From Bdellovibrionota bacterium FG-2 (GTDB lineage: Bacteria; Bdellovibrionota; UBA1018), in NCBI GenBank assembly GCA_051382305.1, contig JBBCAV010000053.1:1-34479 (forward strand): a DNA stretch of 34,479 nt. The letters are read 5' to 3'. The notes under the pieces were generated by a model. It saw only the letters and a program-made list of their open reading frames with translations. It was not told the origin of the DNA and did no database searches. Position 1 is the first letter of the stretch. Every line of letters begins with the position of its first letter. Shown one piece after another: positions 2,552 through 11,571 of this stretch. The translations under genes and the position numbers were made by a program.

Positions 2552-3952
2552 ATGAACACATCACAAGGCACTCCACAAAAACGCGCTTGGGCTGAACCGT
2601 TTAAAATCAAGATGGTCGAGCTCCTCAAGGTCACGACCCCTGAGGAGCGGAGAGTCGCTCTTAAAGAGGCGGGCCATAACACCTTCTTACTGAAATCTGA
2701 TGACGTCTACATTGATCTGCTCACCGATAGCGGCACCAATGCCATGAGCGACGTGCAGTGGGCGGGCCTGATGTTGGGCGATGAAGCTTATGCCGGCAGC
2801 CGAAACTACTACAATCTCGAAGACAACGTTCGTAAATTCTACGGCTACAAGTATCTCGTGCCCACGCACCAGGGCCGAGGCGCCGAGCATTTGATTTCAC
2901 AGATCTTGATCAAGCCCGGAGATTTTGTACCGGGTAATATGTATTTTACCACCACGCGCCTTCATCAAGAACTCGCTGGCGGCACATTTGTCGATGTCAT
3001 TTGCGATGAGGCCCACAATTCTGAGAATTTGAAGCCGTTCAAAGGCAATGTCGATCTGAAAAAGCTCGAAGCCCTGATTGCGAAAGTGGGCGCCAATAAA
3101 ATTCCATATATTTCGGTAGCCGTCACGGTGAATATGGCAGGCGGTCAGCCCGTTTCGATGGAAAATCTACGGGACGTTCGGGCCCTGTGTAAAAAACACG
3201 GCATTCGTGTGATCTTGGATGCGACGCGGGCGATGGAAAATGCTTACTTCATTAAAGTGCGAGAGAAGGGCTTTGCCGATAAATCGATCCCTGAAATCTT
3301 GCTTGAAATGTGCTCCTACTCCGATGGTTGCACGATGAGTGGCAAGAAGGATCTTCTCGTAAATATTGGGGGCTTTTTAGCCATCAATGAATGGGAAGTA
3401 TTTGAAGAAGCGCGAAACCTTGTGGTGGTTTACGAAGGGCTGCATACTTACGGTGGTCTTGCCGGGCGCGATATGGAAGCCATGTCTCGCGGGATTGTGG
3501 AAGCCGCAAACTACGATCATCTGCGCGCACGTATTGGGCAGGTGGAGTACGTGGGTGAGGGACTAAAAAAGGCCGAAGTTCCCTTTGTGCTCCCGGTGGG
3601 GGGGCATGCGATTTTCTTGGATGCCAAAAAATTCTTGCCACATCTGAAACAAACGCAGTTCCCGGCGCAAGCCTTGGCCGCTGAGCTTTATCTTGAATCC
3701 GGAATTCGTGCGATGGAGCGTGGGATTGTTTCCGCAGGTCGTAACAAAGAAACTGGGGATCATTATTATCCAGCGCTTGAACTCGTTCGGCTCACGTTCC
3801 CGAGGCGCGTGTACACGCAAGCCCATTGCGATGTGTTGGTTGAGTCCGTGATCGAAGTTTACCGCAATCGAAACAAGATCAAGGGTCTGAACATGGTTTA
3901 CGAACCCAAATATTTGCGTTTCTTTCAGGCTCGCTTTGAGCCCATCGTTTAG
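2552..3952 (+). CDS. tpl: Tyrosine phenol-lyase (PLP-dependent beta-eliminating lyase)
   Basis: Family motifs [20 protein letters not shown] and [11 protein letters not shown]-type residues: [11 protein letters not shown] lysine motif TMSGKKD, MERG (Arg381 equivalent) and LRFF (Phe448 equivalent). Confidence 0.95.
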
Positions 3953-3976
3953 TTAATTGTTAGAAGGAGCTAGAAC

Positions 3977-5725
3977 ATGGACATAGCAGGAAGTCGGATT
4001 CTCATTCTCGGCGGCCCTGGATTAGTGGGGATGGCCGTCGTACGCAGGTTCTTATTTCACAAGCCTGAGTCGTTGGTCATCACAGCGTTGACGAAAGCCG
4101 AAGTCGATAGCGCGCTCAAAGAACTCGAGCCGGTTGCAGGAAAAACCAAGATTACTGGAAAATGGGGCAATGTTTTTGTGCGCTCCGAGTTTAAAGATTT
4201 ATCGCGCGCCGAGATTCTGGGAAACCCCGCACGACTCAGTCGTTTCGTCTTGGATACGCTGGAGCCGCTAAACGACGAGATTTTGAATGCTTCGACGCTT
4301 TATGACTTTGTGAAAGAGTATAAGCCTCATACGATTATTGATTGTATCAACACGGCTACGGCGCTTGCCTATCAAGACGTGTTTGAAACCTCACGGCAGA
4401 CCTATGCGATGCTCAAAGACTCGACCGTGAGTTCAAGCCCTGAGTTCAAGACAAGGGTTGAAACGTTGTTGGGCACGCAGTATACGCCGCAGTTGATTCG
4501 GCATATTCAGATTCTTTGGGAGTCGCTCACGGATGTTGGCGTGCAAACTTATCTTAAAGTGGGAACCACAGGAACCGGCGGAATGGGGCTCAATATTCCC
4601 TATACGCATTCTGAGGATAAACCCTCACGCGTATTGTTGGCAAAATCCGCAATCGCGGGCGCGCAGACGATGCTGCTTTTCTTATTAGGCCGTACCGCGC
4701 GTGAGCATGGTTCAACCTCGCAATGGTCCCCAGATCGCAACATCAAGGCGGGTTCTCCGATTATTAAAGAGGTCAAACCTGCGGCCGCCATTGGTTGGAA
4801 AGAAATCAGCTTTGGCAGAATCAGACGCAAAGGCAAGCCCGTCGAGCTTTTCGATCAAGATCCGAGCTGCGCTTTAGGGGTTGAGGAGATTTTGGCTCCT
4901 CGCACTCAAACATGGAAACGCGTGGAGAATGATTATCTGCAAGCCCCTTTCATCGATACGGGCGAAAACGGTATTTTCTCGCGGGGCGAATTTGAAGCCA
5001 TTACGGATGAAGGGCAGATGGAATTTATTACGCCTGAAGAAATCGCAGAAACCGTGGAAGCCGAAATCATGGGCGGCAATAGCGGCTCTGATTGCGTGAG
5101 TGCGTTGGACTCTGTGGTTTTAGGCCCGACTTATCGGGCCGGTTTCCTAAGAGCGCGCGCGGTGGAGAAGTTGCGCCAATTGGAAGACACCAATGGCGTG
5201 CCCAGTGTGGCTTTTGAAAACTTGGGCCCTCCAAGGCTTTCGAAATTGTTGTTTGAGCTGCATCTTATTACTCAGGAAATGGGCTTGCTGGAGGCCCCTA
5301 AATTTGACGCCGCTGAACTTGGCAAACGCTGTGAGGAGCGAATCTTAAAGAACGCAAAATTGCGAGCGGCGATTCTCTCTGTCGGTATTGCCATTGTATT
5401 GAGAAACGGGCGCGTGTTGCGGGGACCAGAGCTTGTGATTCCGAGTCGGTGGGATATTCCGAAGGATGGCGTTGTTGGAGCAAAGCATCTAGACCAGTAT
5501 GCAGCTCAGGGCTGGCTTGATTTGCGAGAAGCGAATATGAAGTCTTGGCTTACTCGTTTGGCTGCACTTCGAGATGAAGCGATGCGAGCGGATAACGAAA
5601 ATACCGGCTCGGCTTATGTGCGAAACCGCACCCATTGGGAAACCGTGGCCAAACAGGGGTCGCTAGGGAGCGTCGTGAGTTGGGTCTTCTTGCGTGAAGA
5701 AGACGGGGAGCGAGTCAAACGCTAA
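3977..5725 (+). CDS. Uncharacterised NAD(P)-binding Rossmann-fold protein (SDR-like), 582 aa
   Basis: N-terminal ILILGGPGLVG dinucleotide-binding motif, IIDCIN strand and Gly-rich GTTGTGGMGLNIPYTHSE block. AAGGAG RBS. Its stop overlaps the iorA start (TAATG). Confidence 0.75.
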   Translation: MDIAGSRILILGGPGLVGMAVVRRFLFHKPESLVITALTKAEVDSALKELEPVAGKTKITGKWGNVFVRSEFKDLSRAEILGNPARLSRFVLDTLEPLNDEILNASTLYDFVKEYKPHTIIDCINTATALAYQDVFETSRQTYAMLKDSTVSSSPEFKTRVETLLGTQYTPQLIRHIQILWESLTDVGVQTYLKVGTTGTGGMGLNIPYTHSEDKPSRVLLAKSAIAGAQTMLLFLLGRTAREHGSTSQWSPDRNIKAGSPIIKEVKPAAAIGWKEISFGRIRRKGKPVELFDQDPSCALGVEEILAPRTQTWKRVENDYLQAPFIDTGENGIFSRGEFEAITDEGQMEFITPEEIAETVEAEIMGGNSGSDCVSALDSVVLGPTYRAGFLRARAVEKLRQLEDTNGVPSVAFENLGPPRLSKLLFELHLITQEMGLLEAPKFDAAELGKRCEERILKNAKLRAAILSVGIAIVLRNGRVLRGPELVIPSRWDIPKDGVVGAKHLDQYAAQGWLDLREANMKSWLTRLAALRDEAMRADNENTGSAYVRNRTHWETVAKQGSLGSVVSWVFLREEDGERVKR

Positions 5726-10172: not shown

Positions 10173-10191
10173 ATGAACGAGGAGAGAGACG

Positions 10192-11571
10192 ATGGAACGC
10201 AAACGCTGTATTTTTGAGCCTTTTAAAATCAAGGTCGTGGAACCCCTCGCAATCAAAACTCGCGAGCAGCGAGAAGTGATTCTAAAAAAGGCGGGCTGTA
10301 ACTTATTCTTGGTCGCTGCTGAAGATGTCACGTTTGATTTTCTCACGGACTCGGGCACGACCGCGATGAGTGCCAATCAGTGGGGCGCAATGATGGTGGC
10401 GGATGAGAGTTACGCGGGCTCTCGCAGTTTTCATCGCTTTGAAAAAGTAGTGCGCGGATTAACGGGGTACACAAGCGTGCTCCCCACCCATCAAGGACGA
10501 GCCGCTGAAAGGCTTTTGTTTTCTTACCTTGTGAAACCCGGGATGAAGATTCCTTCTAACAATCATTTTGATACGACGAGGGCGAATATCGAGCAATTGG
10601 GAGGTCAAGCCGTAGATCTTGTGATTGCCGAAGGTAAGGATCCGACATCTCGTCATCCTTTCAAGGGCAACATTGATCTCGTGAGGCTTGAATCTTTTTG
10701 TCGCGAGAATGTGGGCAAAATTCCTTGTGGAATGATCACGATTACCAATAACACGGGCGGGGGTCAGCCTGTTTCTCTAGAGAATATGAGGGCCGTGGCC
10801 GCGATCTATCATCGTTACGGAATTCCTTTTATTATGGATGTTTGCCGTTTTGCGGAAAACAGTTACTTTATTAAGGAACGAGAAGAAGCGCTTTCGGGGC
10901 GAAGCGTGCGAGAAATTGCGCAAGAAACTTTTTCGTTGGCTGATGGCTGCATGATGAGCGCGAAGAAAGACGGGCTCGTGAACATCGGGGGCTTTATTGC
11001 GTTGAAAGACTCCCAATGGGTGGACGGCCTTCGTAGTTTGCTCATATTGACTGAAGGGTTTCCCACTTACGGCGGGCTTGCGGCACGAGACCTTGAGGCT
11101 TTGGCCGTGGGGTTAGAAGAAGTTTTGGATGAGTCTTATCTGAGTTATCGAATTGCCGTGATCCGCTATGTGGCGGAAGGACTCAATCGGATAGGGATTC
11201 CGACGGTGCAGCCGCCGGGCGGGCATGCGGTGTATATTGATGCCAAGGCTTTCTTGCCTCATATTGCGCCCGAAAAGTTTCCGGGGCAGGCGTTGGTGTG
11301 TGAAATTTATCTGGCCGAAGGCATTCGAAGTTGTGAAATTGGCTCCGTGATGTTTGGGAAAAAGTCGGGTGAAAACATATTTATTCCTTCGGCCATGGAG
11401 TTGGTACGTTTGGCGATTCCGAGAAGGGTATACACTCAAAGCCATTTTGATTATATTTTGGAAGGAATGGAGGAGCTTGTCGGGCGCAAAGACAAACTTC
11501 GAGGGGTTCGCATGACGTATGAGCCGCCATTCCTCAGGCATTTTACCGCGCGCTTTGAAATGCTGCACTAG
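10192..11571 (+). CDS. tnaA: Tryptophanase (tryptophan indole-lyase)
   Basis: Same fold as tpl but with Trpase-type residues: HFDTTRAN, MSAKKD, EIGS and LRHF. GGAG RBS. Confidence 0.92.
   Translation: MERKRCIFEPFKIKVVEPLAIKTREQREVILKKAGCNLFLVAAEDVTFDFLTDSGTTAMSANQWGAMMVADESYAGSRSFHRFEKVVRGLTGYTSVLPTHQGRAAERLLFSYLVKPGMKIPSNNHFDTTRANIEQLGGQAVDLVIAEGKDPTSRHPFKGNIDLVRLESFCRENVGKIPCGMITITNNTGGGQPVSLENMRAVAAIYHRYGIPFIMDVCRFAENSYFIKEREEALSGRSVREIAQETFSLADGCMMSAKKDGLVNIGGFIALKDSQWVDGLRSLLILTEGFPTYGGLAARDLEALAVGLEEVLDESYLSYRIAVIRYVAEGLNRIGIPTVQPPGGHAVYIDAKAFLPHIAPEKFPGQALVCEIYLAEGIRSCEIGSVMFGKKSGENIFIPSAMELVRLAIPRRVYTQSHFDYILEGMEELVGRKDKLRGVRMTYEPPFLRHFTARFEMLH

Follow-up and report, generated by a model that had tools for sequence, protein, structure and literature searches.

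A six-gene array of two beta-eliminating lyases, IorAB, an ADP-forming acyl-CoA synthetase and a PF27054 oxidoreductase in a Bdellovibrionota genome, read as a candidate aromatic amino acid catabolic operon

Genes of the locus and their assignments

The stretch of DNA analysed here, called the window, covers in full contig C53 (JBBCAV010000053.1; 34,479 nucleotides, nt) of the draft genome of Bdellovibrionota bacterium FG-2 (G000; 4.3 Mb, 433 contigs, 85% complete). Between positions 2552 and 11571 it carries six plus-strand open reading frames (ORFs), which encode two beta-eliminating lyases, the two subunits of an enzyme related to indolepyruvate:ferredoxin oxidoreductase (IOR), named IorA and IorB, an ADP-forming acyl-CoA synthetase (ACD) and a predicted oxidoreductase of family PF27054. 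With a probability of about one half, we read these genes as an operon for the catabolism of aromatic amino acids, with IorAB and ACD as its base and arylpyruvates as its hub. The enzymes are known and their arrangement is new; the full array was seen only in the window and in a sister species of the same genus among the genomes searched.

An earlier description of the locus made from the letters alone, the original prediction, gave six co-oriented genes with gaps of 24, -1, -4, 3 and 19 nt, and the ORF listing returns exactly these values. Its naming of a tyrosine phenol-lyase, a tryptophanase-type lyase, IorAB and ACD also holds in profile scores and alignments, while its four functions left out one of the six genes, gene 2, which belongs to PF27054. 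The six genes are as follows, with lengths in amino acids (aa).

2552..3952, plus strand: gene 1, tyrosine phenol-lyase (TPL), 466 aa (TIGR02618, PF01212)
3977..5725, plus strand: gene 2, PF27054 protein, predicted NAD(P) oxidoreductase of the short-chain dehydrogenase/reductase (SDR) fold, 582 aa (precomputed PF27054, SDR fold)
5725..7404, plus strand: gene 3, IorA, short form without ferredoxin domain, 559 aa (TIGR03336, POR_N, TPP_enzyme_C)
7401..7967, plus strand: gene 4, IorB, 188 aa (NF005324, PF01558)
7971..10172, plus strand: gene 5, fused ACD with the ATP-grasp part first, 733 aa (ATP-grasp_5, CoA_binding_2, Succ_CoA_lig)
10192..11571, plus strand: gene 6, tryptophanase-type beta-eliminating lyase, 459 aa (NF009709, 8sbg alignment)

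Gene 2 and the IorA gene overlap by 1 nt, the IorA and IorB genes overlap by 4 nt, and both lyase junctions have a Shine-Dalgarno motif: between genes 1 and 2 it is AAGGAG, 8 nt ahead of the gene 2 ATG, and between ACD and gene 6 it is GAGGAG, ahead of the gene 6 ATG. The location on one strand, the short gaps, the ribosome-binding sites and a gene order conserved in the sister species (G001) are what is expected of an operon, and the spacing is as operon-like as had been proposed. Judged from these features, the six genes probably work as one operon and would be transcribed together.

The two lyases were assigned by curated profiles and by residues at defined positions. Gene 1 scores above the TPL equivalog TIGR02618 (780.4 bits against a cut-off of 720.7) and aligns without gaps to the Citrobacter TPL 2ez1, so that its R109, T133, K266, F457 and F458 correspond to R100, T124, K257, F448 and F449 of that chain, which we take to be the pyridoxal 5'-phosphate lysine and the substrate-pocket residues with roles in specificity. 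Gene 6 is above the tryptophanase subfamily model NF009709 (644.9 bits, cut-off 285), and its best solved match is the tryptophanase 8sbg (E 2e-136), with TPLs close behind at about 1e-131. Where TPL has T124 and F448, the residues of gene 6 are D and H, in the contexts 'nnhfDttr' and 'lrHft'; the counterparts in 8sbg are 'nshfDttk' and 'mrHft', whereas TPLs have T and F there. On this evidence the two bracketing genes are paralogs with opposite specificity residues, T/F in gene 1 and D/H in gene 6, in agreement with the earlier description. TPL splits tyrosine to phenol and tryptophanase splits tryptophan to indole, each with release of pyruvate and ammonia.

The best family of IorA is IOR_alpha, TIGR03336 (E 4e-149), of which positions 4-542 of 595 are covered, the last 53 or so being without a match. 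No Fer4 domain is present in this protein, for which Pfam gives POR_N and TPP_enzyme_C only. We considered a missing ferredoxin domain as an oddity of this IorA and rejected it, as the short form is common among the 119 nearest homologs; these are 530-601 aa long, have the same two Pfam domains and in many cases are named IorA by their sources. IorB, whose gene adjoins that of the alpha subunit, is above the IOR-beta equivalog NF005324 (255.7 bits versus 222) and carries PF01558. In ACD, the domains ATP-grasp_5, CoA_binding_2 and Succ_CoA_lig are all above cut-off, and 9y43, an ADP-forming 3-hydroxypropionate-CoA ligase of identical domain order, is its best solved relative; HKTD and SHTGS of this ligase align with HKTE and SHTAS of ACD, presumably the phosphohistidine motifs. 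ACD reaches no NCBIfam equivalog, the best scores being 212 and 202 bits against cut-offs of 567 and 1300, and its substrate is not assigned by this route.

The assignment of gene 2 to PF27054 is precomputed and, with the family absent from the local Pfam copy used, carries no score; it is shared by all 120 homologs among the matches listed. At least 7999 proteins of a large protein collection match gene 2 at E <= 0.001. Proteins of PF27054 number more than 8000 and are mostly annotated 'short-chain dehydrogenase', and the ESM Atlas, in whose clusters 95-98% of members carry PF27054, names the family 'Beta_methylindole_red_C'. Local Pfam and NCBIfam profile scans gave nothing above cut-off for gene 2, and neither an IOR nor an ACD domain; a comparison of its sequence with solved structures gave three weak matches, all in the Rossmann region (best E 0.009).

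An N-terminal dinucleotide motif, GGPGLVG, is present in gene 2, with G12, G15 and G18 invariant, and an AlphaFold (AF2) model was built from 32 sequences with a mean pLDDT of 81.5. From residue 1 to about 382 this model superposes on many SDRs (VIA-align Z 16-18, root-mean-square deviation 3-4 A over 190-240 residues), and Foldseek, which matched the N-terminal half only and with TM-scores of at most 0.50, agrees with the SDR fold at weaker scores. The C-terminal part (about 385-582), which lies beyond the SDR alignments, is helical. Among the invariant residues no YxxxK was recognised; Y192-x-K194, Y209, H211 and K223 are conserved. Gene 2, which is neither an IOR nor an ACD, is predicted from the model to be an SDR-fold NAD(P) oxidoreductase, and we propose that it is a 2-oxoacid (arylpyruvate) reductase or 2-hydroxyacid dehydrogenase. 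A comparable activity is described for Ind2, which in the biosynthesis of indolmycin acts as a ketone reductase on 3-methylindolepyruvate with NADH (PMC8246080, PMC5925218), and this activity matches the Pfam name of the gene 2 family. Ind2, in contrast, serves antibiotic biosynthesis in Streptomyces whereas gene 2 lies in a catabolic-looking operon, and the two are likened through the Pfam name.

Conservation in relatives and limits of the array

The genome of the window was compared with those of 60 relatives (61 genomes). A PF27054 gene is present in four of them (G000, G001, G003 and G036), IorA in 10, a homolog of TPL or tryptophanase in 25 and a TPL ortholog with at least 74% identity in nine. 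In G001 the order of the six genes is kept, split over two contigs inside the ACD gene; the protein identities to the window are about 71-94%, and the array is followed on its 3' side, as in the window, by PilZ, 5'-nucleotidase-like and phosphofructokinase genes. G003 and G036 have PF27054-IorA-IorB-ACD without the lyases, which in G003 are a TPL and a tryptophanase gene adjacent to each other on another contig and in G036 are located on two further contigs. Five further loci (in G018, G010, G019, G006 and G007) have an intact IorA-IorB-ACD without PF27054.

Two of the relatives show other genes joined to this unit. In G019 (L115, G019:C22, 12679-13812) a class I/II aminotransferase gene follows ACD after 22 nt on the same strand, which supports the sequence of transamination, IOR and ACD that the original prediction had assumed. 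In G039 (L116, G039:C139, 2237-3661), which belongs to another family, a tryptophanase 73% identical to gene 6 is encoded 15 nt upstream of IorA-IorB, again on the same strand. IorA occurs in eight of the nine genomes with a TPL ortholog as compared to two of the 52 without, and a tryptophanase-like gene is present in all ten IorA genomes. In the relatives searched, IorA-IorB-ACD is a conserved unit, and PF27054, the aminotransferase and the tryptophanase are lineage-specific additions. It was also considered that the core had been inserted into a pre-existing TPL-TnaA tandem; this was not adopted, as the tandem of G003 lies between flanks that have no gene in common with the window, and the lyases of other relatives are apart.

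Such a distribution could also come from a recent juxtaposition without common function, in which a rearrangement in one genus put two resident lyase genes beside IorAB-ACD, with separate transcription or as a neutral arrangement. The occurrence of the array in a single genus is as this explanation would have it, most relatives with the complete set carry the components unlinked, and the window shows no shared regulatory element: no Rfam family reaches its gathering score anywhere in it, and a repeat scan returned only the similarity of the TPL gene to its paralog gene 6 and short chance matches, with no flanking repeats that would point to a mobile insertion. We regard a chance arrangement as unlikely nonetheless, because the 24- and 19-nt gaps with their Shine-Dalgarno motifs leave no room for separate promoters or terminators, the order is kept between two species with proteins diverged by 5-29%, the lyase-IorA junction of G039 and the aminotransferase junction of G019 are independent, and IorA accompanies the TPL ortholog in all but one of the nine genomes that have it.

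The linkage of PF27054 with IorAB was followed beyond the relatives. Among 11 PF27054 loci from the genome collection, six have IorA and IorB at a distance of 1.5 kb or less, co-directional with the PF27054 gene in L002-L004 and divergent in L008, L009 and L012. Metagenomes contributed 80 loci, of which 52 are too short to judge this neighbourhood; IorAB was found near PF27054 only in L025, a duplicate of L004, while it is lacking in 27 loci whose flanks reach 4 kb or more on each side. In a quick tree (SH-aLRT, midpoint root) the IOR-linked genes form two separate clades with different gene orders, and both are outside a large clade of 77 rows that has no IOR linkage. The linkage is recurrent and is not a property of the whole family. 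Neighbouring ORFs were taken from 29 long metagenome loci (116 ORFs), from which 22 were dropped, namely the four of L025 and 18 outer ORFs. In the 28 loci that remained, the neighbours include a phosphotransferase system (PTS) EIIA-2 protein in six, histidyl-tRNA synthetase in six and CorA in three. The PTS EIIA-2 (PtsN-like) gene is located just upstream on the opposite strand in L031, L059, L073, L077, L093 and L096 (6/28), all of the large Bacteroidota-type clade, with histidyl-tRNA synthetase beyond it in five of these six.

Around the six genes, the following features bear on the limits of the array.

2492..2519, plus strand: promoter-like hexamer pair, TTGTGA, a 16-nt spacer and TAGAAT; weak (9/12 matches), a position only and not evidence of function
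11588..11749, plus strand: PilZ-like reading frame (DNA alignment with G001)
11944..12342, plus strand: PilZ-domain protein, 132 aa (PF07238, E 1e-13)
12390-14360, plus strand: 5'-nucleotidase-like gene (ORF listing)

On the 5' side, a gap of 93 nt, inside which the weak promoter-like site lies, separates TPL from the gene upstream. That gene (1079-2458) encodes a 459-aa protein with weak SMC-like coiled-coil matches, and a protein of 72% identity is encoded in the same place in G001. On the 3' side, the PilZ-like frame begins 16 nt after gene 6 and is followed by the second PilZ gene, all on the plus strand. The proposed end of the module at 11571 had to be given up, since with a PilZ frame only 16 nt beyond gene 6 this limit is no boundary; the operon may be longer than six genes, with the PilZ genes possibly co-transcribed. 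The statement that no aminotransferase, permease or regulator is included stands for the first two within the six genes, and neither a leader-peptide nor a permease gene was recognised at the cluster, while its last part is uncertain given the PilZ genes within 16 nt in both species. A terminator-like hairpin at 11628-11653 was rejected as the end of the operon, as it sits within the PilZ-like frame.

The first PilZ-like gene (11588-11940) has TAA at codon 54 where G001 reads CAG, and the homologous frame extends to about 11940; two in-frame 9-nt indels also distinguish the window from G001, whose counterpart is an intact ORF of 115 aa. The interrupted gene may be a pseudogene or an assembly error. 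Farther downstream, a plus-strand row at 16066-18490 encodes an Rrf2-family regulator, a protein with a hemerythrin domain and one of 444 aa in which 4Fe-4S binding motifs occur, and may be an iron, redox or oxygen-sensing unit. A resistance-nodulation-division (RND) efflux system is encoded on the minus strand (20308-27399). It comprises an AcrB-type pump (1068 aa) and an outer-membrane factor, for which the longest frame starts with a MarR-like segment, perhaps two genes merged in the ORF call.

Arylpyruvates as a possible metabolic hub

In the reading that we prefer, IorAB would oxidatively decarboxylate indolepyruvate, phenylpyruvate and 4-hydroxyphenylpyruvate to the corresponding arylacetyl-CoA, with the electrons passing to a separate ferredoxin, and ACD would convert arylacetyl-CoA to arylacetate with formation of ATP. 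TPL and the tryptophanase-type lyase would provide a second route, from tyrosine and tryptophan to phenol and indole with pyruvate and ammonia. The original prediction had pictured two routes on shared aromatic substrates; the aromatic theme is retained, and gene 2 would add a third fate, or a source, of the 2-oxoacid, as its protein would interconvert arylpyruvates and aryllactates with NAD(P)H and could either work as a redox valve or let hydroxy acids into the pathway. The pyruvate released by the lyases could be passed to a pyruvate:ferredoxin oxidoreductase (PFOR) encoded elsewhere, and might in addition accept the amino group in the reaction of an unlinked aminotransferase from which the arylpyruvates arise.

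A full-length PFOR is encoded outside the array in G000, G001, G003 and G039 (1799 bits versus a cut-off of 911); in G000 it is located at G000:C229:36114-39635. Its presence in G000 and three relatives points to anaerobic or microaerobic metabolism, and with it IorAB is not needed for pyruvate. Bacterial enzymes of the PPFOR-like type, likened here to genes 3 and 4 by their two-gene make-up, favoured aromatic 2-oxoacids when assayed (bioRxiv 10.64898/2026.01.29.702580). The separate PFOR and this preference would argue for an aromatic rather than a pyruvate substrate of IorAB.

The same enzymes could be arranged around pyruvate, in a linear pathway in which the lyases release it, the IorAB-like enzyme, specific for it or broad in its range of 2-oxoacids, oxidises it to acetyl-CoA, from which ACD forms acetate and ATP, and gene 2 reduces the surplus to lactate. 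Both lyases yield pyruvate by established enzymology, and the tryptophanase gene 15 nt upstream of IorA-IorB in G039 suits an order of producer and consumer; moreover, with IorA below the IOR_alpha cut-off and ACD matched by no equivalog, the substrate of neither is fixed by family membership. Several observations make such a pathway unlikely. In genomes with a PFOR elsewhere the oxidation of pyruvate does not call for another enzyme, IorB passes the IOR-beta model, the triad of G019 is joined to an aminotransferase and not to a lyase, and the Pfam name of gene 2 points to a substrate of the indolepyruvate type. In the same preprint, the PPFOR-like enzymes favoured aromatic substrates and pyruvate was handled by PFOR-like enzymes (bioRxiv 10.64898/2026.01.29.702580).

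The direction of the reactions was considered in light of amino acid biosynthesis. In G000, G001, G003 and G036 (completeness 85-98%), the tryptophan synthase beta chain TrpB is above cut-off in none of the four genomes and indole-3-glycerol phosphate synthase (IGPS) was found in none; in the controls for these searches, matches were obtained in 14 of 14 genomes, over cut-off in 13 of 14 for TrpB and in 14 of 14 for IGPS. Chorismate synthase is present in three of the four genomes and prephenate dehydratase in two, with both in G000 and G001. From gene content, these four organisms may be tryptophan auxotrophs.

These absences would be accounted for if the array ran in reverse as an anabolic or salvage module that compensates for the missing tryptophan pathway, in which arylacetates taken from the environment are activated by ACD, arylacetyl-CoA undergoes reductive carboxylation by IorAB to arylpyruvates for transamination, and the lyases form tryptophan or tyrosine by joining pyruvate and ammonia (or serine) to indole or phenol. 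IOR-dependent synthesis of aromatic amino acids from aryl acids is known in methanogens, and the best solved relative of ACD is an acid-activating ADP-forming ligase. The oxidative steps are reported, for the Clostridium scatologenes enzymes, to be thermodynamically reversible (PMC13285125). We nevertheless hold this reversal to be distinctly improbable: G000 and G001 encode chorismate synthase and prephenate dehydratase, so that salvage of phenylalanine and tyrosine is not required, TPL and tryptophanase are degradative in their known physiological settings, the linkage with an aminotransferase and the energy conservation by ACD fit catabolism equally well, and the absence of a gene from draft genomes is weak evidence.

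A doubtful extension combines both directions. PF27054 proteins would be arylpyruvate reductases that, with IorAB-ACD, support a self-balancing dismutation of arylpyruvates to aryllactate, arylacetate and ATP, and since the genus has no recognisable tryptophan pathway, the lyase-flanked array could run both ways, burning aromatic amino acids in times of plenty and, under scarcity, using indole, phenol and arylacetates to rebuild tryptophan and tyrosine.

Several results weigh against an aromatic amino acid catabolic operon. As to the enzymes, IorA reaches 497.5 bits with IOR_alpha, below the cut-off of 650.9, gene 6 is below the TnaA equivalogs (NF053783, 531.5 versus 750; TIGR02617, 484 versus 825.8), and the ligase 9y43, the nearest solved relative of ACD, runs in the acid-activating direction. 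The Pfam name of PF27054 appears to derive from Ind2, as judged from the match of name and activity. Of the 28 metagenome loci flanked by 4 kb or more on each side, only one has IorA near the gene 2 homolog, and this is the duplicate of L004; the large Bacteroidota-type clade has no consistent neighbours (Pfam on the 94 neighbour ORFs of 28 loci), and the general function of PF27054 is therefore perhaps unrelated to IOR. As to the locus, the 3' end of the operon is undefined, and promoter-like sites are not enriched in the region (7 observed versus 8.4 expected from shuffles). As to conservation, the check by co-conservation that accompanied the original prediction came out negative beyond one genus for the full array, which is found in two of the 61 genomes, both of one genus, as compared to 10 for IorA and four for PF27054. 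In G018, G019, G006, G010 and G036 the lyases and the triad are on different contigs or far apart, with the lyases in unrelated gene contexts, so their linkage is not needed for function, and the co-occurrence counts were taken over kin genomes, which are not independent.

Bdellovibrionota are known mainly for aerobic predators. If the catabolic reading is correct, the array would bring a ferredoxin-dependent, ATP-yielding fermentation of aromatic amino acids into an Oligoflexia lineage of this phylum, and would illustrate clearly how a catabolic operon is put together from parts already resident, in which relatives attach different enzymes to IorA-IorB-ACD, namely an aminotransferase, a tryptophanase, TPL with tryptophanase, or the putative PF27054 reductase. 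PF27054, an uncharacterised family, gains a concrete and testable substrate hypothesis. Phenol, indole and arylacetates are bioactive, and thus carriers of the array could shape their surroundings chemically.

Relation to known systems

Full-text literature searches returned no paper on an arrangement of TPL and tryptophanase with IOR-ACD and PF27054, in line with the earlier statement that no description of it was known; a looser search brought up reviews on microbial or aromatic amino acid metabolites and studies of unrelated topics. Close in overall logic is the peptide fermentation of Thermococcales, which uses IOR and an ADP-forming acyl-CoA synthetase; there, as proposed here, arylpyruvate is converted to arylacetyl-CoA with reduction of ferredoxin, and an NDP-forming synthetase then yields arylacetate and ATP. 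The present locus differs in its short bacterial IorA without a ferredoxin domain and its single fused ACD with the ATP-grasp part first, and its genes are contiguous and joined by two beta-eliminating lyases and an SDR-type reductase. With the enterobacterial tna operon and stand-alone tpl genes the locus has its lyase chemistry in common, along with the residues for catalysis and specificity, whereas in the window the lyases flank an IOR-ACD unit, with no leader-peptide or permease gene recognised and no Rfam element.

Among two-subunit enzymes, the PPFOR-like 2-oxoacid:ferredoxin oxidoreductases (OFORs) of gut anaerobes prefer aromatic 2-oxoacids and convert indolepyruvate to indoleacetyl-CoA (bioRxiv 10.64898/2026.01.29.702580); the likeness to genes 3 and 4 is one of subunit number and proposed substrate, and the abstract and passages of the preprint name no linkage to a lyase, ACD or PF27054, the full text not having been searched for these. 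In C. scatologenes an oxidative branch of tyrosine fermentation is formed by HpdDEFG, HpdJ and HpdK, with similar trios reported to be widespread (PMC13285125). As in the present proposal, a gene cluster there turns an arylpyruvate into an arylacetate with ATP and reduced ferredoxin. It does so with a four-subunit OFOR, a phosphotransacylase and a kinase, in place of which the window has IorAB and a single ACD, together with TPL, a tryptophanase-type lyase and PF27054.

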